Source: an uncultured Pseudomonadota bacterium (GTDB lineage Bacteria; Pseudomonadota; Gammaproteobacteria; Steroidobacterales; Woeseiaceae). From it: a DNA stretch of 64,000 nucleotides. The notes under the pieces are model-generated. The model saw nothing but the letters and a program-made list of their open reading frames with translations. It was not told the DNA's origin and did no database searches. A program made the position numbers and the translations under genes. Position 1 is the first letter of the stretch, and every line of letters starts with the position of its first letter. Of the stretch, positions 14,718-44,838 are shown in pieces. The DNA lies in the NCBI GenBank assembly GCA_942491885.1, contig CALOCQ010000010.1, positions 13,907-77,906 on the forward strand, in the 5' to 3' direction.

Positions 14718-14729
14718 GTGGCGTGCTCT

Positions 14730-14832
14730 TTTGCCGCGGGCCTGCGGCCCTCGCAATGACGGTTTGCCGCGTCGCTGGTTTGCCGCGGGCCTGCGGCCCT
14801 CGCAATGACGAAAGAGAGACCGTCATTGCGAG
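14730..14832. repeat. REP-like intergenic element
   Basis: The 32-bp unit TTTGCCGCGGGCCTGCGGCCCTCGCAATGACG occurs exactly twice (14730-14761 and 14779-14810). There is also a truncated copy at 14763-14771 and an inverted CGTCATTGCGAG at 14821-14832 that can pair with either CTCGCAATGACG. Confidence 0.8.
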
Positions 14833-21609: not shown

Positions 21610-23613
21610 CTATTCCTTGTCGGTTTTCGCGTCATCGGCGTCGTTGTCGATTGTGACCAGCACATCGCCGCCGTTGACCAGTTGATTAACGCTCACACGC
21701 GCCGCGGCAATGGTGCCGGCGAGCGGTGCTTTCAGTGTGTGTTCCATTTTCATGGCCTCGAGGACGAGCAGTGTCTGCCCGGCCGTGACGACATCGCCCT
21801 CGGCGCAGTCCACACGTACGACGCGCCCGGTCATCGGCGCGCGTACGTTGCCGTCGGAGTGTCGCGCTTTGGCCTCGCCGGTATCGGCCGTCGCGCGGGC
21901 GAACTGATGGCGCGCGCCGTCGATTGAGAGCACGCCGCGCCCACCTCGCATCACATAGGCAACATCGCGACTATGGCCGTCGATGATGAGCCGCAGGCGG
22001 GTTTCGCCGACCGTCGCGCTGATGTCGCTTTGCTTGTCATCGTTGTGTGCGCCAACGGGCGATGCTGCCGAGTGATCAAATGCCAACATGACTTCGGCGT
22101 TTTCGCCGTCGATTGTCAGCGCGATGGGCACCGTGTTCGGCAGGTTCGCCCGCCATCCTCGGCCTTCGTGCCAGCGCTGGTTGCCTGTACCTGCGGCGCT
22201 TCGTGTCTGATGCCAGACCAGAACAGCGGCCGCGATGCACGCCGCGCGTTGTGCTGGCGCCGATGCCAGTGATTCGGCCGCGTCCTGGATGAACCCGGTG
22301 GTCACGCCGCCCTGCGCGAACTGCGCAGTGGCAATGGCGCGGCGCAGAAACGCCAGATTGTTTGTGACGCCGAGAATCAGGTAGTCGTCCAGCGCATGAA
22401 GCATCCGTCGGCGTGCCGACTCGCGGTCATCGCCATGCACGATCAGTTTGGCAATCATCGGGTCATAGAAGACGCTGACTGTATCGCCGCCGCGCACGCC
22501 ACTGTCGATACGTGTGGTTGCATCCTCAGCGGGTAGCCGGACCGCGTCGAGTCGGCCGCTGGTCGGCAGGAAGTCGTTGTCGGCGTCCTCGGCGTAGACG
22601 CGCGCCTCAATCGCATGACCGTGCTGGCGGATTTCCTCCTGTGTGCGCGGCAGCGTTGCGCCATTGGCGACGCTGAGCTGCCACGCGACGAGATCGACGC
22701 CGGTGATCATCTCTGTCACCGGGTGCTCGACCTGCAGTCGCGTATTCATCTCCATGAAATAAAATGCGCCGTCATGATCGAGCAGGAATTCAACGGTACC
22801 GGCGCCGACGTAGTCGATCGCGCGGGCGGCTTCGATTGCGGCGTTGGCCATGTCCGCACGCAATGTATCCGATAGCCCCGGTGCCGGTGCTTCCTCGATG
22901 ATTTTCTGATGGCGGCGCTGGATCGAGCAGTCGCGGTCGAATAAATGAACAACGTTGCCATGCTGGTCGGCAAACACTTGTAACTCGATGTGTCGCGGCG
23001 CGGCGAGATACTTCTCGACCAGCATCGTCTCGTCGCCGAATGCGCCCGATGCCTCGCGTCGCGCCGCGGCCAATTCATCGCCGAACGCGTCGTCGTCTGC
23101 GACCACGCGCATGCCTTTGCCACCGCCACCGGCCGCCGCCTTCAGTAGTACCGGATAGCCGATATCCCGCGCGGCAGACTGCAACGTTGCATCATCCTGA
23201 TCGTTGCCGTGATAGCCCGGCAACAACGGCACGCCGGCCTTGTGCATGATCGCTTTCGCGGCCGACTTCGAGCCCATCGCCTCGATGGCCGCGATCGGCG
23301 GTCCGACAAACGCAATATCGTTGTCGGCGCAGGCGCTGGCGAAGCGGGCGTTTTCGGAAAGGAATCCGTAGCCGGGGTGGATCGCATCGACGCCACAGCG
23401 TTTCGCCGCGTCGATGATCACGCCGATATTCAAATAAGACGCCGCCGGCGCGTTGTCGCCGATGTGTACAGATTCGTCGGCCATCAGAACGTGCAGCGCT
23501 TCGCGGTCGGCATCCGAATAGACGGCCACGGTCGCGATACCGAGATCTTGTGCGGTGCGAATAATCCGGCAGGCGATTTCGCCGCGGTTTGCGATCAGGA
23601 GTTTGCTAAACAC
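21610..23613 (-). CDS. liuD: 3-methylcrotonyl-CoA carboxylase alpha (biotin carboxylase + BCCP) subunit
   Basis: [21 protein letters not shown] biotin-carboxylase N-terminus. C-terminal biotinyl motif LEAMKMEH. Confidence 0.9.
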
Positions 23614-23615
23614 GG

Positions 23616-25223
23616 CTACATCCGGAACACGCCGAAACGTGTCTCATCTATGGGTTGATTCAATGCGGCCGACAAAGACAGCGCGATGACGTGGCGTGTG
23701 TCGGCCGGATCTATAACGCCGTCGTCCCACAGGCGCGCCGACGCGTAGTAGGGGTGGCCCTGACGTTCGTACTGATCGATGATCGGTTGCTTGAAGTCTC
23801 GCTCGGCATCCTCGCTCCAGCTGTCGCCGCTTCTTTCTTTCTGATCGCGTTTGACCTGCGCGAGCACGCTGGCGGCTTGCTCGCCGCCCATGACGGAGAT
23901 GCGCGCGTTCGGCCACATAAACAGGAAGCGCGGGTCGTAAGCGCGACCCGCCATGCCGTAGTTGCCGGCACCGAACGAGCCGCCGATGATGACAGTGATC
24001 TTCGGCACGTTGGCGCAGGCGACCGCGTTGACCAGCTTCGCGCCGTCCTTGGCGATGCCGCGTGCTTCGTATTGGCGGCCCACCATGAAGCCTGTGATGT
24101 TTTGCAGGAAGACCAGCGGTATCTTGCGCTGTGCACACAGCTCGATGAAATGCGCGCCCTTCAGTGATGACTCGCTGAACAGGATGCCGTTGTTGCCAAG
24201 GATGCCGACCGGGTAGCCATCGATGCGCGCAAAGCCGCACACCAGCGTTTCGCCGTACAGCGCTTTGAACTCGTGGAAGTCGGAGTCGTCGACGATGCGC
24301 GCGATCACCTCGCGAACGTCGTAAGGCGTTTTGAGGTCGGGCGGTACGACGCCGTACAGCTCTTCGATGTCGTAGCGCGGCGGCAGGCTTTGCTGACGGT
24401 CGGTCTGTTCGGGCTTGACCCAGTTGAGTCGTGCGACCGCGTCGCGTGCGAGCTGCAATGCATGCTCGTCGTTTCTCGCGTAGTGGTCGGTGACGCCGGA
24501 CTCGCGGCAATGCACGTCCGCGCCACCGAGCAACTCCGCGCTGACTTCTTCGCCGGTCGCGGCCTTAACCAGTGGCGGGCCACCGAGAAAAATGGTGCCT
24601 TGGTTGGCAACGATGATGGATTCATCTGCCATCGCCGGCACGTAGGCGCCGCCGGCGGTGCATGAGCCCATGACGACCGCAATTTGTGGAATCCCCTCGG
24701 CCGACATGCGTGCCTGATTGTAAAAACAACGACCGAAGTGTTCGCGGTCCGGAAATACCTCGTCCTGCATCGGCAGGAATGCGCCGCCGGAGTCAACCAG
24801 GTAGATACACGGAAGCCGGTTTTGCGCGGCTATGGTCTGCGCCCGCAAGTGCTTCTTGCCGGTCAGCGGGTAGTAGGTGCCGCCTTTGACGGTCGCGTCG
24901 TTGGCAATGATGACGCACTCAACGCCGCTGACGCAGCCGATGCCGGTGATGATGCCGGCAGCCGGGACGGCGTCATCGTAAACATCGTGTGCCGCGAGCT
25001 GGCTGAATTCGAGGAATGCGCTGCCGGGGTCGATAAGCCGGTCTATGCGTTGGCGCACCAGCAACTTGCCACGCGAGGTATGTCGCGCCTGGCGTTCCGG
25101 GCCACCGCCTTCGGAAATCGCGCTGACCGTATCGGCGAGTTCGTCGACCAGAGCGCGCATGCGCCTGTCGTTGTCGGCGAAGTCCGGGCCGCGCGTATCG
25201 ATGCTGGATTCAATAATCGTCAT
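23616..25223 (-). CDS. liuB: 3-methylcrotonyl-CoA carboxylase beta (carboxyltransferase) subunit
   Basis: Carboxyltransferase family sequence, about 535 aa. The ATG at 25223 has a GGAG 5 nt upstream, and the liuR stop is at 25226. Confidence 0.9.
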
Positions 25224-25225
25224 CT

Positions 25226-25609
25226 CTACTCCGCCAGCGCCTGCCGGCATTCCTTTTCCACCTTGCGCAGGTCGGCAAGCGTCGCTTTGAGGTCATCTGC
25301 CTGGGCCTGCAATTGCGCCTTGCGCTCCGCGAGTTTGGCAAGCAGCGCCTGGAGCTGGCGCCGCGAGCCTTCCGGCGCCTGATACAAACCGATAATTTCC
25401 GCCGACTCTTCGAGCGACAAGCCAAGCCGCTTGCCACGCAGGATTAATCTGAGGCGCACCCGGTCCGCGCCGTCGAAGTAGCGTACGCGACCTTGGCGCT
25501 CGGGCGTGAGCAGGCCTTTCTCTTCGTAGAATCGAAGCGTTCTTGTTGTGACGTCGAATTCCGAGGCGAGATCGCCGATCGAATAGAGCGTCTTGGCGGG
25601 TGTGTTCAT
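25226..25609 (-). CDS. liuR: MerR-family regulator, LiuR-like
   Basis: N-terminal MerR HTH ([26 protein letters not shown]) plus a coiled-coil. It is the first gene of the leucine-catabolic operon. Confidence 0.85.
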
Positions 25610-25628
25610 CGGGGTAGTCTAACTGCCG

Positions 25629-25644
25629 TTAACGTTAACGTAAA
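25629..25644. promoter_or_regulatory. candidate LiuR (MerR-type) operator TTAACGTTAACGTAAA
   Basis: 14 of 16 positions are palindromic, with a perfect ACGTTAACGT core. It lies 20 nt upstream of the liuR ATG, in the divergent intergenic region. Confidence 0.45.
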
Positions 25645-25801
25645 TAGACCGGGTTCACATCCTGACCATTGTCCCGTTGTTGTGGCGTGCCCTGCGGGCG
25701 GCGGCATTGACGGGGTCGTGTCATAATTGACGGTCAGGCGCGTCGTGCAGGTGTTGCCAATAACGGCACACCGCGGCGAGCGGATGATGGGGCAAGAAAG
25801 C

Positions 25802-26938
25802 ATGGGGCCATTACACGGCACGCGTGTCATCGAATTGAAGGGTATCGGGCCGGGTCCGTATGCCGGCATGTTACTCGCGGACATGGGTGCCGACGTGATC
25901 GTCGTCGAGCGCGCATCCACCGCGCAAGGCATCGCGATTCCGTCCGCGGTGGATGTGCACTCGCGCAACAAACGCTCGATTGCGCTCGACCTGAAGAACC
26001 CCGCGGGGCTCGCGGCATTACTAAAACTCGTCGACGGCGCCGATGCGTTGCTTGAGGGATTTCGCCCGGGCGTGGCGGAGCGATTGGGCTGCGGGCCGGC
26101 CGAGTGCCACGCGCGCAACCCGCGGCTCGTGTATGGCCGCGTTACCGGCTGGGGACAGGATGGCCCGCTCGCGCAGTCGCCCGGTCACGACATTAATTAC
26201 ATCGGTCTGACCGGCGTGCTCGCCGCCATCGGCACCCGCGAAAAACCGCTGCCACCGCTGAACATCATCGGTGACTATGCCGGCGGCAGCCTGTTCCTCG
26301 TCATGGGCATGCTGGCAGCAATGCTGGAGGCGAAAACCTCCGGTAAGGGCCAGGTCGTCGACGCCGCGATCACCGACGGCAGCGCGAATCTGATGTCGGG
26401 CTTTTACGGCTGGCAGCAACTGGGCTTCTGGCACGCGCAGCGTGGCGGCAACCTGCTCGATGGCGCGGCGCACCACTACAATGTTTACGAGACGAGCGAC
26501 GGGGGATGGTTATCCGTCGGTGCGCTCGAGCCGCAGTTCTACACCACGTTCCTGAAACTGATGGCGCTGGACGCGTCGCGTTTCGGCGGGCAGCAACCCG
26601 TCGAACGATGGCCCGAGCTCATTGAAGCGCTTAGCGAGGTGTTCAGCAAGAAGACGCTGGCCGAGTGGTGTGACCTGCTGGAAGGCACCGACGCCTGCGT
26701 CGCGCCCGTGCTCGACATGAACGCGGCGACCCGGCACCCGCATAACGTCGCGCGCCGGACCTATGTCGATGTTGGCGGCGTCACGCAGCCGGCGCCGGCA
26801 CCGCGCTTCGACCGTACGCCCTGCGATGTGCCTTCGCCGCCCCGCGCCGAGGGCAACGACACGCGCGAGGTGCTCGCATCCGCCGGTTTCAGCGATGATG
26901 AAATCAATGCGCTAGACCGCGCCAACGCACTTACCTGA
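25802..26938 (+). CDS. CaiB/BaiF family III CoA-transferase / alpha-methylacyl-CoA racemase-like
   Basis: MGPLHGTRVIELKGIGPGPYAGMLLADMGADVIVVER closely follows the family N-terminus. Alternative upstream ATGs at 25784 and 25787. Confidence 0.85.
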   Translation: MGPLHGTRVIELKGIGPGPYAGMLLADMGADVIVVERASTAQGIAIPSAVDVHSRNKRSIALDLKNPAGLAALLKLVDGADALLEGFRPGVAERLGCGPAECHARNPRLVYGRVTGWGQDGPLAQSPGHDINYIGLTGVLAAIGTREKPLPPLNIIGDYAGGSLFLVMGMLAAMLEAKTSGKGQVVDAAITDGSANLMSGFYGWQQLGFWHAQRGGNLLDGAAHHYNVYETSDGGWLSVGALEPQFYTTFLKLMALDASRFGGQQPVERWPELIEALSEVFSKKTLAEWCDLLEGTDACVAPVLDMNAATRHPHNVARRTYVDVGGVTQPAPAPRFDRTPCDVPSPPRAEGNDTREVLASAGFSDDEINALDRANALT

Positions 26939-26972
26939 TTAATACCCGGCTTATCGCCACGGAGTTTCTGTT

Positions 26973-28775
26973 ATGTCCATGATCGTCAACCGCCGCGACC
27001 TCGATTTTTACTTGTACGAGATGTTCGATCTCGAAACCTTGTTAGGTACGCAACGTTACGGCGACTACGACCGCGAGACCATCGGCGCGGTACTCGACAG
27101 CGCCCAGCAGATTGCCGAGGAGGCATTCTATCCTTTCGCGCAGAAGCTGGATGAAAACGAACCGCGTTTCGTCGACGGCAAAGTGGTATTGATTCCCGAG
27201 GTCGCGGCGGCGCTCGAGGCATATGCGGATGCGGGGTTCGTCGCGGCGGGTTTTTCCAGCGAAGACGGCGGCATGCAATTGCCGTGGCTTGCCTATCACA
27301 TGATGAACGGCATGTTTACCTGCGCCAACACATCGGCGATGAGTTACATGTTTCTGACCACGGCGAATGCCAACATGCTGAACGCCTGTGGCAGCGATGC
27401 GTTGAAGCAGAAATTCCTGCCGCCGATGCTGGAGGGGCGCTGGTTCGGCACGATGTGTCTCTCCGAAACGCAGGCGGGTTCTTCGCTCGCCGATATCCGC
27501 ACCATGGCGACGCCGACCGATGATGGTTGCTACTCGCTGGTTGGCACAAAGATGTGGATCTCCGGCGGCGAGCAGGAGATCAGCGAGAACATCGTGCACA
27601 TGGTGCTGGCACGAACGCCGGGTGCGCCCGCCGGTGTGCGCGGGATATCGCTGTTTCTGGTGCCGAAATACCGGGTCAGCGACGACGGCAAGGTTGGCGA
27701 GTGGAACCACATCGCGCTGGCCGGGCTGAACCACAAGATGGGCAATCGCGGTACGACCAACTGCCTGCTCAACTTCGGTGAGGGAGGCGCGAGCTTCGGT
27801 TATCTCGTTGGCAATGAGAACGAAGGCCTGGCCAACATGTTTCATATGATGAACGAGGCACGCATCGGCGTCGGTCTTGGCGCCGTGATGTCGGGTCTCG
27901 GTGGCTATCTGTATTCGCTCGACTATGCACAGAGTCGGTTGCAGGGTCGCCCGGCGTCGAACAAGAATCCGGAAACACCACAGGTGCCGATTATCGAGCA
28001 TGCGGATGTGCGGCGGATGCTACTCGCACAAAAAGCCTACGTGGAGGGCGGTCAGTCACTCATTTATTACTGCGCCGAGTTGCAGGACCAGATGGCGGTG
28101 ACGAGCGATGCGACCGAGCGCGTGCGCCTGAACCTGCTGCTGGAGCTGCTAACGCCGGTCGCCAAGTCGTGGCCGTCTGAGTATTGCCTCGAGGCGAACA
28201 AACTCGCGATCCAGATTCTTGGCGGTTACGGCTACACGCGCGACTACCCGGTCGAGCGTTTTTATCGTGACAATCGTCTTAATCATATCCATGAAGGCGC
28301 GCATGCCATTCACGGGCTCGACATTCTCGGTCGCAAGGTTCGCATGGCGCACGGTGCCGCGCTGGATGCCCTGGCCGACGAAATGGCAGAGGCTATCGGC
28401 CATGCACGCGACCATGCGACCTTGCATGACTTCGCTGACGCGTTGCAGGAGGCATGGCAGCAGGTGCGCGATACCGTCAGCGTGGTTGTCGACTGCGAGG
28501 ACCGTGATCTCGGGCTCGCCAATGCAACGATTTTTCTCGATGCATTCGGCCATGTCGTCGTGGCATGGTTGTGGCTATGGCAGGCACATGCTGCCGAGCG
28601 CCAGTCGTCGGGCAACACCGCGGACGAGGCTTTCTATGCCGGCAAGCTGGCGGCGTGCCGCTACTTCTATCGTTACGAGCTACCCAAGGCGCGTGCACAA
28701 TTGGCGTTGGTCGCCTCGCTGGACGACACGAGCCTGACGATGCCGGTGGCGGCCTACACGGGCGAGACCGCTTAA
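26973..28775 (+). CDS. long-form acyl-CoA dehydrogenase (about 600 aa, extended N- and C-terminal domains)
   Basis: Acyl-CoA dehydrogenase core (FGTMCLSETQAGSSLADI...KMWISGGE) with extra terminal domains. Confidence 0.85.
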   Translation: MSMIVNRRDLDFYLYEMFDLETLLGTQRYGDYDRETIGAVLDSAQQIAEEAFYPFAQKLDENEPRFVDGKVVLIPEVAAALEAYADAGFVAAGFSSEDGGMQLPWLAYHMMNGMFTCANTSAMSYMFLTTANANMLNACGSDALKQKFLPPMLEGRWFGTMCLSETQAGSSLADIRTMATPTDDGCYSLVGTKMWISGGEQEISENIVHMVLARTPGAPAGVRGISLFLVPKYRVSDDGKVGEWNHIALAGLNHKMGNRGTTNCLLNFGEGGASFGYLVGNENEGLANMFHMMNEARIGVGLGAVMSGLGGYLYSLDYAQSRLQGRPASNKNPETPQVPIIEHADVRRMLLAQKAYVEGGQSLIYYCAELQDQMAVTSDATERVRLNLLLELLTPVAKSWPSEYCLEANKLAIQILGGYGYTRDYPVERFYRDNRLNHIHEGAHAIHGLDILGRKVRMAHGAALDALADEMAEAIGHARDHATLHDFADALQEAWQQVRDTVSVVVDCEDRDLGLANATIFLDAFGHVVVAWLWLWQAHAAERQSSGNTADEAFYAGKLAACRYFYRYELPKARAQLALVASLDDTSLTMPVAAYTGETA

Positions 28776-31343: not shown

Positions 31344-31361
31344 ACAGACCTGAAGAAACAA

Positions 31362-31398
31362 AGCCCCGGTCGACAGCTGTCGACCGGGGCTTTTTTTT
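31362..31398 (+). terminator. rho-independent terminator
   Basis: Perfect 30-nt palindrome AGCCCCGGTCGACAG/CTGTCGACCGGGGCT followed by a run of eight T. Confidence 0.85.
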
Positions 31399-31498
31399 AC
31401 CTGTGTATTGGGGTGTGAGACCTTGAGAAACGGGCCGCAGCCATGCATCATCGGCTATTGCCGCAGTGCAGCATACAAATCTTCCACCGGAGTCGAAA

Positions 31499-33499
31499 AT
31501 GCGCCAGTTCATGTTATTGCTCAGTCTTGTCCTGATCCTTACAGCGGGGCGGTCTGCGGCCGCAGCGAAGGTCGAAAATTTCCGTTTGCTGGATCAGAAC
31601 CTGCAAGCACATGAGCTGTACTACCATAAAGACGCCAAGGCGATAGTGCTGCTGGTGCAGAGCAACGGTTGCCCGATTGCGCGCAACCTGTTGCCTGACC
31701 TCAGTGATCTTCGTGACCGCTATGCCGAACGCGGTGTCGAGTTCGCATTGATTAACTCGAGTATCCAGGACACGCGCGCGGCAATCCGGGAAGAGGCCGA
31801 AACCTTTGCGATCGATTTTCCGATCCTCGTTGATGAAACCCAGCTGATTGGCGAGTCGCTCGAACTGGATCGCAGCGGTGAGGTTATTGTCGTTGATCCG
31901 ACGAATTGGACTATCGCTTATCGCGGCCCGCTCAGCGATCGCGTCGGTTATGAGACCCAGAAAAAAGAAGCGAGCGAGCACTACCTCGCCGATGCGCTTG
32001 ACAGCATTATCGCCGGCCAGCCAGTCGCCGAGCCGCGTCGCAATGCGGTCGGTTGCATCGTCAATTTCCCGGAGCGCGAGCGCGTTGCCGCTCACGCCGA
32101 AATCAGCTACAGCGACACTATTGCGCCATTGCTGGAGCAACGTTGCGTTGCCTGTCACCGTCCGGGCGGTATCGGCCCGTGGGCGATGACCAGCTACGAA
32201 ATGATTAAAGGTTTCTCACCGATGATTCGTGAGGTGGTCAGAACCCGCCGCATGCCACCGTGGGAAGTTGCGACCGATCTGCCGGACATCCACGGTGCAC
32301 GTGCGCTGACCGTCGACGAAAAGAAAACGCTGATCCATTGGATCGAAGCGGGCGCGCCGCGCGGCGAGGGTGAAGACCCGTTGCTTGCCGTCACGGCTGC
32401 GCCCAAAGAGTGGCCGCTTGGAGAGCCGGACCTTATCGTGTCGGCACCGCCGTTCACCGTGCCGGCGACCGGTGTTCTGGACTATCAGTTCCCGGCTATA
32501 GATAACCCGCTTGCGGAGGATGTCTGGGTGCGTGCGGTCAGCATCAAACCGGGGCAGGGCGAAGTCGTCCACCACGTGCTCATCGGTACCTCGGAGGAGA
32601 TGATCCCCGAAGGCGAGGGTCGTCTGGATGCCGTGTTCGGCAATTATCTTATGGGCTACGCGCCGGGCGCTGAGTCATATATCTATCCGGATGAAACCGG
32701 CGTGCTGGTCAAGGCCGGTGGTCAGATTCACCTGCAGATGCACTACACAACCTACGGTCGTGAAGTCACCGACGAGACGCAGATCGCGCTGTACTTTCAT
32801 GATGAGATGCCGCGCTACAACCTGCGCCAGCAGGTCGTGATCGGGCCCGACGTACAAATTCCACCGGGTGCCGAGCGACATACCGAGTCGGCGTATTTCG
32901 AGTTCGCACGTGACGCGGAGATTTACAGCCTGTTCCCGCACGCACATTACCGAGGTGTAGAAACGCGTTTCGATTTGCACCTGCCGGACGGCAGCAAGCA
33001 GCCATTGTTGCATGTGCCGCGTTACGACTTTAACTGGCAGCACACCTATTCGCTGGAAGAGCCGGTAAGCGTGCCGGCCGGAACGCGATTGGTGCACTCG
33101 ACCGTATACAACAACAGCGAACGCAATCCAGCCAATCCTGACGCGACCCGTGAGGTGCCATGGGGGCTGCAATCGTATGACGAGATGCTGTACGGCGGGT
33201 TCTTCTTTCGCTGGACCGAGGGCACTGCGAAAGCGCCGGTGCATGATGAGCTCGAATTTAATATCGCGCAGATGTTCGGTGGCTTCGACGACGACTTCGA
33301 TGGCGTTCTGACCGCAAAGGAAATGCCGGGCCGTCTTGGCGAAGCGTTCGAAGCCGGCCAGCTTGATCCGTTCAACAAGGACGGTGACGACGCGCTCAGT
33401 CCGGTCGAATATCGTGCATTTGTCGAGTACCGACGGAAACAGGCAGCCGAACAGCGCCAGGCTAATGCCGCGCAGACGCAGGGCAACGGCGACCGTTAG
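31499..33499 (+). CDS. secreted multidomain protein: thioredoxin-like/redoxin + single haem c motif + PHM/DBH-like copper monooxygenase + two EF-hand loops
   Basis: The ATG at 31499 has a GGAG 6 nt upstream and a signal peptide. A redoxin-like fold with a lone Cys (SNGCPIARN). CVACH...MPPW. Copper-ligand pattern VHHVLIG / HLQMHY / FPHAHYRG / YDEMLYGG. EF loops DDDFDGVLTAKE and NKDGDDALSPVE. Confidence 0.8.
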   Translation: MRQFMLLLSLVLILTAGRSAAAAKVENFRLLDQNLQAHELYYHKDAKAIVLLVQSNGCPIARNLLPDLSDLRDRYAERGVEFALINSSIQDTRAAIREEAETFAIDFPILVDETQLIGESLELDRSGEVIVVDPTNWTIAYRGPLSDRVGYETQKKEASEHYLADALDSIIAGQPVAEPRRNAVGCIVNFPERERVAAHAEISYSDTIAPLLEQRCVACHRPGGIGPWAMTSYEMIKGFSPMIREVVRTRRMPPWEVATDLPDIHGARALTVDEKKTLIHWIEAGAPRGEGEDPLLAVTAAPKEWPLGEPDLIVSAPPFTVPATGVLDYQFPAIDNPLAEDVWVRAVSIKPGQGEVVHHVLIGTSEEMIPEGEGRLDAVFGNYLMGYAPGAESYIYPDETGVLVKAGGQIHLQMHYTTYGREVTDETQIALYFHDEMPRYNLRQQVVIGPDVQIPPGAERHTESAYFEFARDAEIYSLFPHAHYRGVETRFDLHLPDGSKQPLLHVPRYDFNWQHTYSLEEPVSVPAGTRLVHSTVYNNSERNPANPDATREVPWGLQSYDEMLYGGFFFRWTEGTAKAPVHDELEFNIAQMFGGFDDDFDGVLTAKEMPGRLGEAFEAGQLDPFNKDGDDALSPVEYRAFVEYRRKQAAEQRQANAAQTQGNGDR

Positions 33500-33606
33500 C
33501 CGAAAGGCGCTGCGGCAATTGCGTATGCCGCCTGGCGTGATCACTGCACATACTGTTCGTTGAAGTTGCTGGCCCATCGGGGGTCTGGCGCGACTGACGG
33601 CAGACT

Positions 33607-34323
33607 ATGATGGCCCACAATGAGCGCGTGCTTGCCGCGCAGCAGGTGTGCAAGGTGTATGGCAGCGGCGATGTTGCCGTGCATGCGCTGCGTGATGTCG
33701 ATCTGGTGCTGGAACGCGGCGAGCTCGTCGTGTTGCTGGGCGCCTCCGGCAGCGGCAAGTCCACGCTGCTCAACATTCTCGGCGGGCTTGATCAGCCGAC
33801 GACCGGCCAGGTGTTTTTCGGCGCTCAGGAGCTGAGCGCCGCATCCGCCGCCGAATTAACCCGCTATCGTCGCGATCACGTGGGTTTCGTCTTTCAGTTC
33901 TACAACCTGATTCCGGGGCTGACCGCGCTGGAGAATGTGCAGCTGGTCACCGAGATCGCACGTGACCCGATGCCGGCCGCCGATGCGCTGGCGATGGTTA
34001 ACCTGCACGAGCGCGCGCACCATTTCCCGGCGGAGCTATCCGGCGGTGAACAGCAGCGCGTCGCGATCGCGCGGGCCATCGCGAAGCGACCGGCGGTGCT
34101 GCTCTGCGATGAGCCGACCGGCGCACTCGATAGCCAGACGGGCGTCGTCGTGCTGCAGGCGATTCGCCAGATTAATCGTGAGATTGGTACAACGACGGCG
34201 GTGATCACGCATAACCTCGCAACCGGCGACATGGCCGACCGTGTCGTGACCCTGGCGGACGGGCGGATCAGCAACGATCGGCGCAATCAGAACCCCGTCG
34301 ATCCGTCCGAGATCAGCTGGTAG
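33607..34323 (+). CDS. ABC transporter ATP-binding protein (MacB/LolD-like)
   Basis: Walker [10 protein letters not shown], signature [14 protein letters not shown], Walker [13 protein letters not shown]. Confidence 0.92.
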
Positions 34324-34329
34324 CCGGTA

Positions 34330-36693
34330 GTGCGCATCCTCAACCGAAAACTGCGTCGCGATCTGTGGCATATGAAAGGGCAGGCCTTTGCCATTGCGAT
34401 GATCATCGCGTCTGGCACAGGGTTATGGGTTATGTCGATGTCGATTCATTCGGCGCTCGACGAGACGGTTGCGGCGTACTACGAGCGCTATCGGTTTGCC
34501 GACGCGTTTGCCGAGCTGCGTCGCGCGCCTACGTCGGTCGCCACCCAGATCGCCGGCATTGACGGGGTGCAGACCGCGCAGGCGCGCATCGTTGCGAACG
34601 CGATCCTCGATATCGACGGCGTCAATGAGCCGGTGCAGGCGCGGCTCGTGTCGTTGGCCGAGCACGGGGAATTGACGCTGAATAAACTGGCGCTGCGCTC
34701 GGGCCGGTTGCCGCGACCGGGGCACGCGGACGAGGTCGTGTTGAGCGAGCAGTTCGCCATCGCGCATGACCTGATTCCCGGCAAGCACTTCGCAGCGCTG
34801 ATGAATGGCCGTAAGCAGCGGCTGACGGTCGTTGGGACCACGCTGTCACCCGAATATATTTACGCAATGGCACCCGGTGCGCTGATGCCCGACGATCGCC
34901 GCTTCGGCATTATCTGGATGCCGTACGACACGCTCGCCGCCGCATTCGATCTCGATGGTGCGTTCAACAGCATCAGTGTGGCGTTGTTGCGCAGCGCCGA
35001 TGTGCGCGATGTAATTGCGCAGATGGACAATGCCCTCGGTCGCTATGGTGGCGTCGGGGCGGTCGCGCGAAAAGACCAGCTGTCGAACTGGTTTGTGATG
35101 AACGAGCTCGATGAGCTCAAACAGATGGCGACGATTCTGCCGGGTATCTTCCTGATTGTGGCCGCGTTCCTGACGAACATGGTGCTGGCGCGACTGATTG
35201 CCGTCGAGCGCAGCGAGATTGGCTTGTTGAAGGCCAACGGTTACACCAACCGGAGTGTCAGCTGGCACTACCTCAAGCTGGTCGCAGCGATTGCCGCCAT
35301 TGGTATCGTGCTTGGTTGGGTGATTGGCATCGGACTCGGGCGCTATGGCGCCACGCTGTATGCCAAGGTATTCCATTTCCCGCTGTTTATCTTTGAGCCT
35401 CAGCCCTCGCTGTTTCTGGTGTCGGCCGCGATCGGCCTGGCCGCCGCATGGCTGGGCACGATCGGCGCGGTAGCCCGCGTCGCACGTTTGCCGCCCGCGG
35501 AGGCGATGCGCCCGCAACAGCCGACATTTCGGCGACATGCGCGAACGCGTCCGGCCGAGTCGAAGCATTGGCTCGATCAGCCGAGCCGGATCGTGCTACG
35601 CCAGCTCGCCCGCAATCCGCTGCGCGCCGCTATCGCGACACTGGGCATGGCGGCGGGTGTTGCCGTCATGGTGCTGGCGCTGCAGTGGGCGGACTCGATC
35701 ACCGCGCTGTTAGACACAGAGTACTATCGCGCACAGCGCCAGGACTATTCCATCGCGCTGACCGAGCCGCGCAATATGGCCGCCGCATTCGATATCGCGC
35801 ATCTGCCGGGTGTGCTCGCCGCCGAGCCGACCCGCTATGTCAGTGCAGACCTTCAGCTCGGTAACCGCATCCACCGCGGGTCATTGCAGGGCCTGGTCAA
35901 GGACGCCGAACTGCAGCCCCTGTTCGATGTGAATCAGGGCGTGCAGACGGTGCCCGATAGCGGCCTGGTGTTGAGCACATGGCTCGCGAAAAAACTGCAG
36001 GCGGATGTCGGCGACGTGGTCACCGTGTCTGTGCTGAGCGGCCGCCGTCCGGTGCGCGATCTGACCGTTATGCAGATTGTCGAGACGAATCTGGGTATGC
36101 CCGCATGGATGGAGCTCAACGCACTCAACCGATTGCTGGGTGACGGTCCGGCGCTTCAGTCATTGTTGCTCAAAGTGGATGAGGCGCAGGAGGCAAAATT
36201 GCTGTCGGTGCTGCGCGATGTTCCTGCAATCAGCGCGGTAAGCAGCCGGCGCGCTGCGGTCAGCATGTTTCACGAGACTATCGAGAAAACGATCCTGATC
36301 TATATCGGTTTTTATATTGTGTTTGCGGTGTTGTTGTCATTCGGTGTTTGTTACAACAATGCGCGCATCACGCTTTCAGAAAACGGCCGCGATCTCGCCA
36401 CGCTGCGTGTGCTTGGGCTCACGCGTGCGGAGATCGGCTATATCTGTCTGGCGGAAACCGCGTTGCTCGCCTTGCTGGCGATACCGCTGGGGTATTTGCT
36501 TGGCTACGGGTTGGCGGTGATGATGTCGTCGACGTTTTCCAATGAACTGTTCAGGGCGCCATTGGTCGTCACCTCTGCGGCGCTTGGCAATGCCACGCTG
36601 GTCGCGCTGGGTGCGGCGGTTGTGTCGTTGCTGATCGTGCGCGTGAGGCTCGACCGACTCGACCTGATCGCCGTGCTGAAGACAAGGGAGTAG
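34330..36693 (+). CDS. ABC transporter permease with duplicated FtsX-like domains
   Basis: 787 aa. N-terminus MRILNRKLRRDLWHMKGQ is typical of FtsX/MacB-type permeases. Two 4-TM blocks are separated by periplasmic domains. Confidence 0.88.
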   Translation: MRILNRKLRRDLWHMKGQAFAIAMIIASGTGLWVMSMSIHSALDETVAAYYERYRFADAFAELRRAPTSVATQIAGIDGVQTAQARIVANAILDIDGVNEPVQARLVSLAEHGELTLNKLALRSGRLPRPGHADEVVLSEQFAIAHDLIPGKHFAALMNGRKQRLTVVGTTLSPEYIYAMAPGALMPDDRRFGIIWMPYDTLAAAFDLDGAFNSISVALLRSADVRDVIAQMDNALGRYGGVGAVARKDQLSNWFVMNELDELKQMATILPGIFLIVAAFLTNMVLARLIAVERSEIGLLKANGYTNRSVSWHYLKLVAAIAAIGIVLGWVIGIGLGRYGATLYAKVFHFPLFIFEPQPSLFLVSAAIGLAAAWLGTIGAVARVARLPPAEAMRPQQPTFRRHARTRPAESKHWLDQPSRIVLRQLARNPLRAAIATLGMAAGVAVMVLALQWADSITALLDTEYYRAQRQDYSIALTEPRNMAAAFDIAHLPGVLAAEPTRYVSADLQLGNRIHRGSLQGLVKDAELQPLFDVNQGVQTVPDSGLVLSTWLAKKLQADVGDVVTVSVLSGRRPVRDLTVMQIVETNLGMPAWMELNALNRLLGDGPALQSLLLKVDEAQEAKLLSVLRDVPAISAVSSRRAAVSMFHETIEKTILIYIGFYIVFAVLLSFGVCYNNARITLSENGRDLATLRVLGLTRAEIGYICLAETALLALLAIPLGYLLGYGLAVMMSSTFSNELFRAPLVVTSAALGNATLVALGAAVVSLLIVRVRLDRLDLIAVLKTRE

Positions 36694-36697
36694 CAAC

Positions 36698-37906
36698 ATG
36701 CGTGCATCGAGAATTCGTCTTTTGATATGGGCCGGCATAGCGATAACGATCGTTGCCGGTCTGGCCTTTCTGTTCCGGCCGGTGCCGGAGCGGGTGGACC
36801 TGGTGACAGTCGGCCGTGACAGTCTCGTCGTGACCGTCGATGATGAAGGCGAGACGCGGGTTCGCGACGTGTTCCTGTTGTCCTCACCGGTGGCCGGACA
36901 GGCAAGGCGTATCATTCTTGAGCCGGGCGATCGCGTTATTCGCAACGAGACGCTGATCACCGAAATCGAGCCTCGCGATGCAGATTTCCTGAATCCTCGC
37001 AGCGAAGCGCAGGCGCAAGCCGAAATGCGCGCCGCTGAATCGGCGTTGACGCTCGCCGAGGCCGAGGTCGAGCGTGCGCAGTCCGAGCTTGATTTTGCTG
37101 CTATGGAGCGAGGCCGCGCGCGCGAGCTAATCGTTGACAACAACATATCGCAGCGGGCACTGGACGACGCGGAGCGGGCTTTTCGCAGCGGCGTGGCGGC
37201 GCTGAACACGGCGCGCGCCGGATTACAGGTCAGACGCTTCGAACTGGAGCGCGCGCGTGCCTCGCTGATCATGCCATCCGGTGTCGACAGTGAGTCGGGC
37301 GCGGGCTGCCTGTGTATTCCCGTTACGGCCCCGGTGGACGGCAGCATCCTGCGTGTGCTGCATGAAAGCGCCGGCGTCGTGGAGGCCGGCGAGCCGCTTG
37401 CCGAGATTGGTGATCCATCGGCGCTGGAGATCGTCGTCGACCTGCTGTCCTCGGACGCGGTGCGCGTGCGCCCGGGGCAGAATGTTGTCATCGAGGAATG
37501 GGGTGGTCCACGGCCACTACAGGGCGTTGTCAGGCGCGTCGAACCGTTCGGGTTTACGCGCGTGTCATCGCTTGGTATCGAGGAGCAACGCGTCAATGTG
37601 ATTATCGACTTCGATCGCAACGTCGACGATGCGACGCAGCTCGGTCATGGCTATCGCGTGGTCACGCAAATCGAACTGGCGCGTGCAGAGGCTGCGTTGA
37701 CCGTGCCGCTCACGTCGTTATTCCGTGACGGCGAACAGTGGTCGGTGTTTGTCGAGCAAGACGGCCGCGCGCGCCTGGTGCATGTCACGATCGGCAAGCG
37801 CAACGCGCTGGCCGCCGAGATCGTTGATGGGCTCGCCGAGGGTGAGCAGATCGTTGCCTATCCGAGCCTGCGTATCAGCGACGGGACTCGCATAGCGGCA
37901 CGATGA
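36698..37906 (+). CDS. HlyD-family periplasmic adaptor
   Basis: N-terminal TM, a lipoyl motif (PVAGQARRIILEPGDRV), a coiled-coil and a beta-barrel C-terminus. It starts 5 nt after the permease stop. Confidence 0.88.
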   Translation: MRASRIRLLIWAGIAITIVAGLAFLFRPVPERVDLVTVGRDSLVVTVDDEGETRVRDVFLLSSPVAGQARRIILEPGDRVIRNETLITEIEPRDADFLNPRSEAQAQAEMRAAESALTLAEAEVERAQSELDFAAMERGRARELIVDNNISQRALDDAERAFRSGVAALNTARAGLQVRRFELERARASLIMPSGVDSESGAGCLCIPVTAPVDGSILRVLHESAGVVEAGEPLAEIGDPSALEIVVDLLSSDAVRVRPGQNVVIEEWGGPRPLQGVVRRVEPFGFTRVSSLGIEEQRVNVIIDFDRNVDDATQLGHGYRVVTQIELARAEAALTVPLTSLFRDGEQWSVFVEQDGRARLVHVTIGKRNALAAEIVDGLAEGEQIVAYPSLRISDGTRIAAR

Positions 37907-37918
37907 GCCGGCGCGTCG

Positions 37919-38725
37919 CTACAAGCCGGACAGCGCGATGCCGACCAGCAGCGCAAGTGCTGATGCGACAAGGCCCGCGAAAAGGACCCGGAGACCTCCG
38001 GTTATGATGCGTGTCTCGGCGATGCGTGCCTTGAGGCAGCCAATGACGAAAAACACCAGTGCTGCAATAATGGCGCTTTGCATGTATGTCGCGTTAGTGA
38101 CGCGCTCGGCGATGGCGAAAGGCAGCAGGGGTAATGCGCCGAAAATCACGAACGCGAAGAACGTCGCTATCGCTGCAGCGAGGGGCGCCCGCGGTGCATC
38201 GGCCACGCGGTGTTCCTCCCTGAGCATGGTGTCCACCCAGACCTTGCGGTCGCTGCTGATCACCGCTACAACCTGCTCCAGTGCGTCTCCGCTCAGTCCT
38301 TTCGCGGCATAAATCTGGCGCAGCTCTTCGCGCTCGCCGTCCGGCACGCGGGCGATATGATCGTGTTCCTCACGGCGCAACCGGTCGATGCGCTCGTGTT
38401 CTGTCTGGGCATTCTGGAAGTTGCTGACCGCCATGCTGAATCCATCGGCGATCAGATTGGCGAGCCCCATGATCAGCACGACGGCTGATGACAGGCCGGC
38501 GCCATAGGCGGCTGATGCGATAGCGAACGTCGTGACACAGCCATCGATGCCGCCCAGCACCGCATCGCCGGTGTAGTCGGGACTTACGCCATCTCGCAGG
38601 CGCCGTGCGATCGACTCGGGAGCATGTTGTTCATCGAGTAGCGTGCCTTGTCTGTCTTCGCTCGTGTTTGTCACCGGCTGGTTCCTCGTGGATTGCGACC
38701 AACGCTGAGTGTAGCGATGGCGCAT
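37919..38725 (-). CDS. VIT1/CCC1-family Fe/Mn transporter
   Basis: GGIDGCVTTFAIASAA...LANLIADGFSMAVSNF and a cytoplasmic metal-binding E-rich helix (TEHERIDRLRREEHDHI). The start is uncertain. Confidence 0.8.
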   Translation of the reverse strand: MRHRYTQRWSQSTRNQPVTNTSEDRQGTLLDEQHAPESIARRLRDGVSPDYTGDAVLGGIDGCVTTFAIASAAYGAGLSSAVVLIMGLANLIADGFSMAVSNFQNAQTEHERIDRLRREEHDHIARVPDGEREELRQIYAAKGLSGDALEQVVAVISSDRKVWVDTMLREEHRVADAPRAPLAAAIATFFAFVIFGALPLLPFAIAERVTNATYMQSAIIAALVFFVIGCLKARIAETRIITGGLRVLFAGLVASALALLVGIALSGL

Positions 38726-42734: not shown

Positions 42735-44834
42735 CTAGTAGATGAGCTGATAGCCGAGCATGACGTAGTTCGAGTCGCGGTCGATGTCTCCGCTGGCCGT
42801 CGTGCGGCTGGCTATCTGCCGGCCTGCCTCGAATTCGACGCGTACATTGCGACCGCTGCGCCACAATGCGCGCAGGCCTGGCGTGAATATCCACTCATCG
42901 CTCTGGTCCGATTTGATTTGTCGATAGTCGACACGTAAGCGGGGACTCAGGAAAAAACTGCGCCGCAGTGGCCAACGGTTATTCAGGTTCAGCGTATAGA
43001 CGCGTGTCGTTGACGAGTCCGCATAACGCACCCCACTTACATAGATGTCGCCTTGCTTGAACAGGCTGCTCGCGACGAGGCTGGTGGAAAAATACTGATA
43101 GCTGTTTTCTGCCTGGCCCGGCACACCGCCGGAATCCGGCGTGGCTGCGATGTCGGTATTGGTTGCGTTCATATTCAATTGCAAACGCGGCGTTAACGGG
43201 CTGGACACGCCTACCGTCATTGTCGTTGCTTCCGGCGCGCGATCCAGTGCGAGTTGGCGTAGCTCTTCCTCAGTAAACAGCACCGCAAGCTCGTCGAACG
43301 AATCGACCTGTTGCCCCATCATTGCATTGCCAATACTCAGGAACTGGCTGCGTCTTCGGTCGACAATACCGCTTATCGTCAGCCCGGAATTTGATCGCCA
43401 TGCGCCTTGCACGAACAGCCCACCCATCTCCTGGAATGCAGTGTCATAGTCCATCTGACCCCAGAGGCTAAGTGACTCGGAAAAATATCTTAGCTCGGTG
43501 CCGACGACCTGCCGGTCAACCATGCCGTCGATCGTTTGCTGTAGTGCGAATACACCGACGTTAACGCGTTCGTCGAGCAGGTCCCGATTGGCACTGATGC
43601 CGTAAAATACCCGCGAGTTGTCTGCGCCGCGGGTAGCCGAATACACGGGGCGACCAGCCACCGCATCGAGTTCCCAGCGATCGCCTAATCGATAGTCGAC
43701 GTTGATGCCATCGAAGCGGCCGAGTACGCCGCCCGAGTTGCGCGACTGTCGACCAATCCGGGTGCCCAGGCCGGTGGCGCTGTCGCGCAGGTCGGCGTAG
43801 GCATATGACAGGCGAAGGTCGTTGGCGCTGGTTTGCGATTGGTCGAGCAGATCGTGGCGGTAGCCTGCGGTGATGCGGCTCGAAAAATCAAAGCGCTCAC
43901 CGCGGCGTCTGGCGTCGACGCTGATGTCGGAGAACACCGCCGATTGACTGACGATTGCGTCGTTGTCAGCGAATTGGTTCTCGTCGCGCCGATAGCGCTG
44001 CGCAAGGAAACTGGCGATTTGCCAGTCGCCACCGCTAGCCACCGTACCGCCACTGTTTGTCGTTGCCGTTGCCGGTGCCGCCCCGTTGGTGTGAGCCGCG
44101 ATTAACGCTGCGAGTCGTTGTTCCACGCGCGCCGCCGCGTCATGTGCGGGGTAGTTGGCGAGGAATCGTTCGTATTCGGCCTTGGCATGCGCGACCTGGT
44201 TGTTTTTCTGACGTGCCAGTCCAAGATATTCCTGAGCCTGCGGGTGATGCGTTGTCTCCGGTTGCTGCAGCACCTTGGTGAAAATCTGGATCGCGACCGA
44301 CAGCTGGCCGGCCATCATTGCGTTGCGGCCATCGGCCATTAATGAGGCCAGCGCGTCGTCGTCCAGTGTTCTGGTACTGGCCTGCTTGATGGCGGGCGGC
44401 GCAGCGGGTTGGACAACAGCGGGCAGGGTATCGGACGACGACGCTTTCGCCTGTGCGATCCAGGCTCCGGGGTAGTCCTGGCGGACCGCCTCGAGGGCAT
44501 CATTCGCCTCGGCGAGCGATCCGAAGACGCCGAGCTGTACCCGATACCAGGTGCGCCCGTCGAGCCGGGTTGTCTCGATCATCACCCGTTTGCCATCGAC
44601 AGCAGGACTGATGAGAAGGTCGGCCTGCGTCGGTATGCGTTGCATCGAGGCGAGATTGATGACGTAGCGACGCGCGCCCGGTGTTGATCGCTTGACCAGC
44701 CGGGTTACGCGCGGTGGCCCATCGGGTTGGTGTTCCTGCACCAGTGGCGCACCGTCGGCCAAAGCGAGCTGTATCGGCAGCACACAGCACATCAGAATGA
44801 CCGTGCTGGTATGTGGTCGTCGTGGCGCTCGCAT
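42735..44834 (-). CDS. outer-membrane protein: SPOR-like + TPR + C-terminal beta-barrel
   Basis: The ATG at 44834 lies 4 nt after the upstream stop and gives signal peptide ...VILMCCVLPIQLALA. A SPOR-like segment (YVINLASMQ...WYRVQLGVFGSLAEANDALEAVRQDYPGAWI). A TPR segment (...QEYLGLARQKNNQVAHAKAEYERFLANYP). About 420 aa of alternating-strand sequence ends GYQLIY. Confidence 0.75.
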   Translation of the reverse strand: MRAPRRPHTSTVILMCCVLPIQLALADGAPLVQEHQPDGPPRVTRLVKRSTPGARRYVINLASMQRIPTQADLLISPAVDGKRVMIETTRLDGRTWYRVQLGVFGSLAEANDALEAVRQDYPGAWIAQAKASSSDTLPAVVQPAAPPAIKQASTRTLDDDALASLMADGRNAMMAGQLSVAIQIFTKVLQQPETTHHPQAQEYLGLARQKNNQVAHAKAEYERFLANYPAHDAAARVEQRLAALIAAHTNGAAPATATTNSGGTVASGGDWQIASFLAQRYRRDENQFADNDAIVSQSAVFSDISVDARRRGERFDFSSRITAGYRHDLLDQSQTSANDLRLSYAYADLRDSATGLGTRIGRQSRNSGGVLGRFDGINVDYRLGDRWELDAVAGRPVYSATRGADNSRVFYGISANRDLLDERVNVGVFALQQTIDGMVDRQVVGTELRYFSESLSLWGQMDYDTAFQEMGGLFVQGAWRSNSGLTISGIVDRRRSQFLSIGNAMMGQQVDSFDELAVLFTEEELRQLALDRAPEATTMTVGVSSPLTPRLQLNMNATNTDIAATPDSGGVPGQAENSYQYFSTSLVASSLFKQGDIYVSGVRYADSSTTRVYTLNLNNRWPLRRSFFLSPRLRVDYRQIKSDQSDEWIFTPGLRALWRSGRNVRVEFEAGRQIASRTTASGDIDRDSNYVMLGYQLIY

Positions 44835-44838
44835 CGTG

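Follow-up and report, generated by a model that had tools for sequence, protein, structure and literature searches.

The 64,000-nucleotide stretch of DNA analyzed here (hereafter, the window), from an uncultured gammaproteobacterium of the family Woeseiaceae (GenBank contig CALOCQ010000010.1), carries on its + strand a gene for a multidomain protein that combines, in this order, a predicted Sec-type signal peptide, a thioredoxin-fold (redoxin) domain, a c-type cytochrome domain, a two-domain copper core similar to those of PHM (peptidylglycine alpha-hydroxylating monooxygenase) and DBH (dopamine beta-hydroxylase), and a pair of EF-hands. This is the sole long open reading frame (ORF) in the region, opening with a GTG at 31466 or an ATG at 31499 and ending at 33499. 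The ATG is the likely start because it is preceded by a GGAG motif and yields a product of 666 amino acids (aa) that is 100% identical to a database protein, P0001. An earlier note, made from the sequence alone, had described a four-part fusion with a signal peptide and a series of short motifs; this architecture is right for the clade to which the protein belongs, all of the motifs occur within the 666 residues in the order given there (Table 1), and the metal ligands that they contain are invariant in homologs.

The copper core is a true homolog of PHM and DBH. Among 177,635 distinct PDB sequences, a profile built from diverse copper domains matched only DBH (E = 8e-9) and PHM (E = ~5e-7). 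Domain-specific alignments were used for the PDB profile searches; the list obtained with the full-length profile is dominated by calmodulin matches to the EF-hands. In the profile alignment, vvHH corresponds to TVHH of PHM (H107/H108), lqlHY to LQVHY (Q170/H172), and pHmH to HTH (H242/H244), which is also HTH in DBH. The succession of HH, H, and HxH motifs that had been read as copper ligands in PHM order is thus reproduced position by position, and the last ligand, the methionine of the CuM-type site (M563), was identified by the E-M motif that it has in common with PHM and DBH and by the match in fold, rather than by residue-level alignment.

Structure prediction led to the same family. All of the top 29 PDB matches found by Foldseek with the AlphaFold2 model of the full-length protein (predicted local distance difference test score, pLDDT, 78.8) are PHM or DBH structures (E = 6e-15 to 4e-12 over ~300 columns; target template modeling score, TM, 0.63; probability 1.00). 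The deep-alignment model of the cytochrome c and copper domains (pLDDT 93.4; predicted TM, pTM, 0.90), in which these domains form one rigid body, likewise returned PHM/DBH as its top 31 matches (2e-14 to 5e-9; TM 0.68 on 1phm), after which come generic jelly-rolls that are ~1000-fold weaker. Across both searches, the PHM/DBH matches span ~290-310 columns at probability 1.00. The central region of the protein therefore adopts the PHM/DBH fold in both models, as proposed in the earlier note. Besides the two-domain beta-sandwich fold (1phm and 3mll for PHM and 4zel for DBH; Pfam PF01082 and PF03712), the core shares with these enzymes the ligand order (HH...H for CuH and HxH...M for CuM), a glutamine two residues before the third CuH histidine, a glutamate before the CuM methionine, and a similar spacing of the ligands (H358/H359-H415-H481/H483-M563 compared with 107/108-172-242/244-314 in PHM).

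A profile search that covered 1.84 billion cluster representatives detected at least 10,818 relatives of the copper core at E ≤ 1e-3 (clusters at 50% identity), including 1,942 at E ≤ 1e-30. Conservation and domain architectures were counted in the best 150 of the 10,818, each less than 50% identical to one another (hereafter, diverse relatives), and residue counts refer to the proteins that cover the respective column. All six copper ligands are 100% conserved: H358 and H359 were found in 149 of 149 relatives, H415, H481, and H483 in 150 of 150, and M563 in 147 of 147. Every proposed ligand is also invariant in 27 homologs with identities down to 51%. In Pfam searches, Cu2_monoox_C was matched by 22 of the 27 close relatives and by 17 of 23 diverse ones.

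Immediately N-terminal to the copper core lies a monoheme c-type cytochrome domain. The CVACH motif had been singled out from the sequence together with the methionine of a following MPPW as a candidate sixth heme ligand, and both hold up across the family, as in a class I-like cytochrome: C216 and C219 are present in 126 of 126 diverse relatives, which would not be expected of an incidental motif, H220 is present in 126 of 127, and M252 is invariant (136/136). Each of 120 close homologs (120/120) contains exactly one CxxCH. The window protein has exactly four cysteines (residues 58, 186, 216, and 219), and 17 of 20,000 composition-preserving shuffles of it produced a CxxCH by chance. In a Pfam scan of 24 cytochrome c domains of the family, 23 matched Haem_bd (best 6e-8) and 22 matched Cytochrome_CBB3 (best 1e-7); the domain of the window protein itself scores 23.6 and 19.2 bits, respectively, against cut-offs of 27. 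Domains of the family also match PccH-type models, and the closest solved relative is the C-terminal heme domain of hydrazine synthase alpha (PDB 5c2v_A, 3e-5). The suggestion that the cytochrome is of the planctomycete type was rejected: no PSCyt family of Pfam was matched at E ≤ 0.1 by any of the 24 domains, nor at E ≤ 1 by the whole protein, and Haem_bd, Cytochrome_CBB3, and PccH-type models were matched instead. The domain has pLDDT values of 84-97 in the deep-alignment model.

The constant unit among the 150 diverse relatives consists of the cytochrome c domain and the copper core, and the dominant architecture is redoxin-cytochrome c-copper core, with the redoxin domain present in ~115 of the 150. 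About 25 relatives have the cytochrome c-copper unit without the redoxin domain; several of these are N-terminally cut fragments, and complete proteins that consist of a signal peptide, cytochrome c, and copper core alone occur. Entries with only the copper core are nearly all fragments. Two relatives contain the unit twice in one polypeptide, as redoxin-cytochrome c-copper core in P0123 (1251 aa) and as cytochrome c-copper core in P0141 (1064 aa), each copy with its own CxxCH.

Scanning one genome per species, we found at least 592 loci in Alpha- and Gammaproteobacteria, cultured isolates included. The gammaproteobacterial carriers comprise Pseudomonadales (including Halioglobus), Steroidobacteraceae, Arenicella, and Paraglaciecola, and the alphaproteobacterial ones Hyphomonadaceae, Phenylobacterium, Brevundimonas, and Kordiimonas; some genomes encode two copies. 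Cultured carriers include Phenylobacterium kunshanense BUT-10, with two copies (L022 and L037), Peristeroidobacter agariperforans KA5-B (L084), and Kordiimonas aquimaris (P0061). The family is also found in Planctomycetota and Myxococcota, a breadth beyond the groups of the genome scan that rests on few source names. Members are named "redoxin domain-containing protein," "peroxiredoxin," "cytochrome c," or "hypothetical" in databases, and the annotation as redoxin or peroxiredoxin is misleading. In the open-access full texts that were searched, we found no description or experimental study of a bacterial protein that joins a PHM/DBH-like core to cytochrome c. The family is an uncharacterized, very large bacterial branch of the PHM/DBH superfamily with a distinctive heme-copper fusion.

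The N-terminal domain adopts a PRX-like1/TlpA-like thioredoxin fold and passes the Pfam cut-offs for AhpC-TSA (6e-9; 36.3 bits, cut-off 26) and Redoxin (1e-8; 35.2 bits, cut-off 26.6). Its PDB sequence matches include 2ywi (7e-11), 2cvb, and 3u5r, with both cysteines, C58 and C186, aligned in all three, and Foldseek identified the same structures at TM 0.72-0.80. These proteins (2ywi, 2cvb/2ywo, and 3u5r) share with the domain the single cysteine in C-P-x-x and the C-terminal cysteine in G-C-x-(I/V), but they are uncharacterized stand-alone proteins of ~190 aa, whereas here the fold is the N-terminal module of a heme-copper protein. ResA (1st9) and TlpA, which have the same fold, contain CxxC; in the window protein, the CxxC active site of the ResA/TlpA/thioredoxin type is absent, with no second cysteine at +3 of C58-P-I-A. 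Thus, the domain indeed has a single cysteine at the CxxC position, as had been noticed, but it is not a degenerate single-cysteine domain: the conserved, co-varying C186 is found also in 2ywi, 2cvb, and 3u5r.

C58 is present in 76 of 106 diverse relatives and C186 in 73 of 105; among the 99 that cover both columns, both cysteines are present in 69, both are absent from 25, and only one is present in 5. Because the two co-vary but are lost together in 25 of 99 proteins, they make up a functional pair that some family members can do without. The conservation pattern suggests a redox-active pair typical of the PRX-like thioredoxin-fold subgroup, although, unlike in the solved PRX-like homologs, it is gone in a quarter of the family members. 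In the PRX-like1 group, as described in CDD, the conserved cysteine takes the place of the first cysteine in the CxxC of thioredoxin rather than that of the peroxidatic cysteine of peroxiredoxins. The redoxin domain thus appears to be an accessory thiol-redox module, which could keep the CxxCH cysteines reduced in cis for heme attachment, provide a second route for reductant, or handle peroxide. ResA and CcmG reduce CxxCH cysteines before heme attachment.

The EF-hand pair at the C-terminus, modeled as two consecutive helix-loop-helix units, was recognized through the family profile, which matches calmodulins in two stretches at ~1e-6. Pfam EF-hand models match 15 of 27 relatives, and no Pfam EF-hand match was obtained for the window protein alone. 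Of the two loops that had been called canonical, the first is, and the second departs from the canonical pattern D-x-[DNS]-x-[DNSG]...E (Table 1). Single-sequence matches to EF-hand proteins of the lanmodulin type are weak (8fns, 0.002; 6mi5, 0.0026). Proline at loop position 2 is a hallmark of lanmodulin. Lanmodulin-like lanthanide binding was considered and rejected: the NCBIfam LanM model gives 2e-4 and 21.5 bits against a cut-off of 135, and the loops have no proline at position 2. The pair resembles those of calmodulin and lanmodulin in its two helix-loop-helix units with 12-residue loops, but differs in the non-canonical second loop and in being a C-terminal tail confined to one proteobacterial clade.

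An EF-hand tail is present in only ~17% of the diverse family members. In Planctomycetota (e.g., P0297, P0326, and P0223), the redoxin-cytochrome c-copper core instead carries an AMPK1_CBM/CBM48-like carbohydrate-binding module, and other members contain immunoglobulin (Ig)-like, alpha/beta-hydrolase, ankyrin, TPR, or BlaR1-M56 modules. Given this low frequency and the replacement of the EF-hands by CBM48-like, Ig-like, and other modules elsewhere, the pair is an accessory tail of one proteobacterial clade and not part of the core mechanism. It probably binds calcium for structure or docking. Calcium-dependent control through the EF-hands, as put forward in the earlier note, receives no support from this distribution, and such control would also be unlikely in a periplasmic domain at seawater-level calcium. 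The CBM48-like tail hints that the planctomycete clade may act on or near glucan.

The gene is preceded by a TonB-dependent receptor gene and a strong terminator, which shields it from upstream transcription, and is followed by a set of exporter genes (33607-37906) whose products are an ABC ATPase of the MacB type, an FtsX permease, and an HlyD-type protein. Further downstream lies a gene for a VIT1-family metal transporter (37919-38725). The description of the gene as standing alone between the receptor and the exporter holds for its neighbors and for the upstream terminator but is less certain for its downstream side, where the 107 nt that separate it from the ABC ATPase gene (33500-33606, +) contain no intrinsic terminator or unusually stable hairpin; read-through co-transcription with the exporter genes is possible in this genome. 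This pairing is not conserved in relatives. The promoter candidate listed in Table 1 is a consensus match only: one sigma-70-like site was found against 0.9 expected by chance, which is not significant. In 53 of the 120 closest homologs, a lipobox (LAAC) replaces the plain signal peptide.

Table 1. The gene for the redoxin-cytochrome c-copper protein and its features (positions in the window)
Feature	Position (nt)	Strand	Residues (aa)	Remarks
Intrinsic terminator of the upstream TonB-dependent receptor gene	31360..31401	+		15-bp stem (hairpin 31360-31393), 4-nt loop, T-run
Sigma-70-like promoter match, weak	31423..31451	+		TTGAGA-17-CATCAT; 9/12 consensus positions
Shine-Dalgarno motif GGAG	31489..31492	+		6 nt before ATG 31499; read directly in the sequence
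Coding sequence	31499..33499	+	666 + stop	Product: redoxin-cytochrome c-PHM/DBH-like copper core-EF-hand protein
Predicted Sec-type signal peptide	31499..31567	+		MRQFMLLLSLVLILTAGRSAAAA; approximate boundary; homolog alignment; modeled helix residues 2-16
PRX-like1/TlpA-like thioredoxin-fold domain	31562..32074	+	22-192	
Motif GCPIA			57-61	
C58 codon, in GCPIA	31670-31672	+	58	
C186 codon, in VGCIVNF	32054-32056	+	186	
Monoheme c-type cytochrome domain	32096..32383	+	200-295	
Motif CVACH	32144-32158	+	216-220	C216, C219, H220
Motif MPPW			252-255	
M252, in RMPPW	32252-32254	+	252	Candidate distal heme ligand
PHM/DBH-like N-terminal beta-sandwich	32405..32818	+	303-440	CuH-type site
Motif VHHVLIG			357-363	
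H358, H359	32570-32575	+	358, 359	CuH-type ligands
Motif HLQMHY			411-416	
H415	32741-32743	+	415	CuH-type ligand; Q413 matches PHM Q170
PHM/DBH-like C-terminal beta-sandwich	32819..33247	+	441-583	CuM-type site
Motif FPHAHYRG			479-486	
H481, H483	32939-32941, 32945-32947	+	481, 483	CuM-type ligands
Motif YDEMLYGG			560-567	
M563, in DEM	33185-33187	+	563	CuM-type ligand
EF-hand pair	33248..33433	+	584-645	Helix-loop-helix twice in the model
EF loop 1	33287-33322	+	597-608	DDDFDGVLTAKE; canonical
EF loop 2	33374-33409	+	626-637	NKDGDDALSPVE; N at position 1, D at position 6, E kept at position 12

Clustering of the ORFs around 81 homologous loci revealed no conserved operon partner, that is, none present in more than 11 of the 81. 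The largest cluster of neighbors is an antisense-ORF artifact of GC-rich DNA and was discarded; the other recurrent neighbors, each found at no more than 11 loci, namely, heterogeneous ABC ATPases, molybdenum hydroxylase large subunits, pyrroloquinoline quinone (PQQ) dehydrogenases, a secreted protein of ~350 aa, and acyl-CoA synthetases, were rejected as partners. Neighborhoods of four relatives that were inspected individually are unrelated. The absence of a conserved neighbor implies that the gene is functionally self-contained, which agrees with the presence of an electron-entry domain of its own. Large subunits of molybdenum hydroxylases (aldehyde oxidase/xanthine dehydrogenase type) are encoded within ~2.5 kb of the homolog in 8 of the 81 genomes (L015, L030, L032, L056, L070, L073, L080, and L085), and one is encoded in the window, 17 kb upstream of the gene (12462-14756, -); PQQ-dependent dehydrogenases recur at six loci. 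This amounts to a weak association with periplasmic oxidative catabolism that is not significant alone.

The window contains several other features of interest. A full-length c-di-GMP-I riboswitch aptamer (1129-1214, +; Rfam RF01051, 77 bits, E = 2e-13) is located ~130 nt upstream of an ORF (1346-2677, +) whose 443-aa product contains He_PIG Ig-like and Glucodextran_B domains and is suggestive of a surface or adhesion protein under c-di-GMP control. A catabolic cluster of the leucine/isovalerate type (21610-28775) lies just upstream of the TonB-dependent receptor gene and encodes the alpha (21610-23613) and beta (23616-25250) subunits of methylcrotonyl-CoA carboxylase, a family III CoA-transferase (25727-26938), and a long acyl-CoA dehydrogenase (26973-28775). 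Two slightly overlapping ORFs on the - strand are rich in heme-binding motifs: one (46182-47747) has 21 CxxCH in 521 aa and matches cytochrome c7/c3 and MtrC-like models of Pfam, and the adjacent one (44839-46335) has 15 CxxCH in 498 aa. The pair (44839-47747) could represent one frameshifted giant multiheme cytochrome or two proteins. Beside it lies an ORF for a 797-aa protein (42735-45128) without a Pfam match and with only weak TPR-type BamD/YbgF matches; together, these ORFs are a possible extracellular electron-transfer cluster.

Taken together, the homology, fold, invariant ligands, and constant pairing of heme and copper domains lead us to propose that the protein probably works in the periplasm as a self-contained copper monooxygenase of the PHM/DBH (non-coupled binuclear) type in which heme c takes the place of ascorbate. 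The protein would be exported via Sec and, in the homologs with a lipobox, anchored to lipid. M252 would be the sixth ligand of a single heme attached covalently in the periplasm at C216-x-x-C219-H220, and two coppers would be bound, CuH by H358, H359, and H415 and CuM by H481, H483, and M563. Electrons from periplasmic one-electron respiratory carriers would enter at the fused heme c, in lieu of ascorbate, and pass via CuH to CuM, where O2 would be activated, and a C-H bond of a periplasmic or surface substrate would be hydroxylated. That heme c might be the built-in donor to CuH had been put forward in the earlier note; the proposal is strengthened, rather than proven, by the constant cytochrome c-copper unit and its predicted packing as one rigid body (pTM 0.90).

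PHM and DBH figure in textbooks as neuroendocrine enzymes of eukaryotes; the animal relatives make noradrenaline and amidated peptide hormones. A review of metalloproteomes lists PHM and DBM among the copper proteins found only in eukaryotes (PMC7435645). The proteins described here are, in contrast, bacterial and periplasmic, are fused to a c-type cytochrome, and have no ascorbate system; neither the DOMON domain, a feature of DBH, nor the PAL domain, a feature of PAM, is present. The fusion of heme c to the copper core argues for a reductant other than ascorbate, and ascorbate dependence is presumably absent. Parallels are found among copper oxygenases of another type. The cytochrome domain of cellobiose dehydrogenase acts on fungal lytic polysaccharide monooxygenases (LPMOs). 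In bacteria, CjX183, a c-type cytochrome domain of Cbp2D from Cellvibrio japonicus, reduces and activates AA10 LPMOs (PMC8981238). In the CjX183/LPMO and cellobiose dehydrogenase systems, an extracytoplasmic copper oxygenase receives single electrons from a small heme domain, which replaces a small-molecule reductant such as ascorbate, and we propose the same role for the heme domain here. The LPMO systems differ in that heme and copper reside on separate proteins, with a mononuclear copper in a histidine brace, whereas here the heme domain and a binuclear PHM-type core share one polypeptide, with predicted rigid packing.

Several observations weigh against this assignment. The window protein scores just below the Pfam cut-offs of both copper monooxygenase models: Cu2_monoox_C, which requires 23 bits, gives 20.2 (22.8 when the domain is scanned alone), and Cu2_monooxygen, which requires 30, gives 11.9; some relatives exceed a copper-monooxygenase cut-off (P0209, 27.5; P0179, 31.6), and most members fall below. 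The identity to PHM and DBH is only 18-21%, and homology is established by the profile-to-PDB search (8e-9) instead of Pfam gathering scores. The intradomain disulfides of PHM and DBH are absent, there being no cysteine in the copper core. The arginine with which PHM binds the substrate carboxylate, R240, has F479 as its counterpart, at a position that is variable within the family, so the chemistry or the substrate may differ from those of the known enzymes. Finally, at least one relative, P0255, lacks cytochrome c while carrying a signal peptide of its own, which implies that the heme is not absolutely required in every lineage.

The redoxin domain and the heme could also be viewed as parts of an electron sink or a thiol oxidase, in which thiols (via C58/C186) or cytochromes would pass electrons through heme c to the coppers and O2 would be reduced to H2O2 or H2O without any hydroxylation, for example, in a disulfide-making or O2-removing system. 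The thioredoxin-fold domain with its co-varying cysteine pair directly upstream of the heme in ~75% of the members and the lack of a conserved substrate-supplying neighbor are compatible with such a role, and PHM-type sites can turn over O2 uncoupled. However, the cysteine pair is lost in 25 of 99 relatives and the entire redoxin domain is missing from complete cytochrome c-copper proteins, while the heme and copper ligands stay invariant, so that thiol chemistry cannot be the core function; moreover, the CuM methionine and the DEM motif, hallmarks of O2 activation for hydrogen atom abstraction in PHM and DBH, are retained in 147 of 147 relatives. We therefore consider this reading unlikely. 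Another reading is a peroxygenase or peroxidase that would use H2O2 at the copper core, as proposed for LPMOs, with peroxide managed by the PRX-like domain and the heme providing only priming electrons. Cytochrome-driven reduction shifts the H2O2 balance of LPMOs (PMC8981238), and the N-terminal domain scores above the Pfam cut-offs for AhpC-TSA and Redoxin. Nevertheless, that domain is dispensable in part of the family. Its cysteine, moreover, is presumably of the thioredoxin CxxC type and not peroxidatic, and we know of no evidence of productive H2O2 use by PHM or DBH, so that this alternative appears quite improbable.

With PHM among the closest solved structures and sequences, the protein might be considered a bacterial PHM ortholog that amidates secreted peptides or ribosomally synthesized and post-translationally modified peptides. 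Against this, the glycine carboxylate-binding R240 has only the variable F479 as its counterpart, the residues that follow the CuM methionine in PHM (which we take to be N316 and Y318) have no conserved equivalent, and the position of Y565 varies among the diverse relatives (I in 70, F in 21, Y in 19, and others, including V and L). Furthermore, no gene for a PAL-like lyase, precursor peptide, or maturation protein recurs near the 81 loci, and the family profile scores DBH above PHM. Orthology to PHM thus seems very unlikely, and the variable arginine position together with the lack of recurring PAL or precursor genes indicates that the substrate is probably not a glycine-extended peptide. It is scarcely credible that the histidines, the methionine, and the CxxCH are structural or incidental and that the beta-sandwich is a non-catalytic binding module (a PNGase F-like fold) in a redoxin protein. 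Such a reading would accord with the database names, which refer only to redoxin or peroxiredoxin, and with the sub-threshold scores of the window protein for the Pfam copper models, but the six ligand positions, CxxCH, and M252 are conserved across proteins less than 50% identical, which is not expected of incidental residues, the ligands align one-for-one with those of PHM and DBH, and the redoxin cysteines are less conserved than the metal ligands.

A self-sufficient monooxygenase with its own heme donor, the interpretation that we favor, would have consequences beyond this protein. PHM/DBH chemistry would reach into the prokaryotes through a huge bacterial family whose binuclear site has the same six ligands, and this would open the question of the origin of these enzymes. 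Electron transfer from CuH to CuM in PHM and DBH is still debated, and a covalent, spectroscopically visible heme donor would give a handle on both the reduction of CuH and the transfer to CuM. For biocatalysis, a copper hydroxylase that is self-sufficient and powered by cytochrome c would also be attractive. Whether the family as a whole is a large overlooked bacterial clade of self-sufficient PHM/DBH-type copper monooxygenases, with a c-type heme as the hard-wired donor to CuH, is to our mind evenly balanced. If it is, its members may harbor new oxidative chemistry outside the cytoplasm and would carry out C-H hydroxylations of a hitherto unknown class in the periplasm or at the cell surface, with the varying tails (CBM48-like, Ig-like, and EF-hand) directing the common heme-copper core to different substrates.

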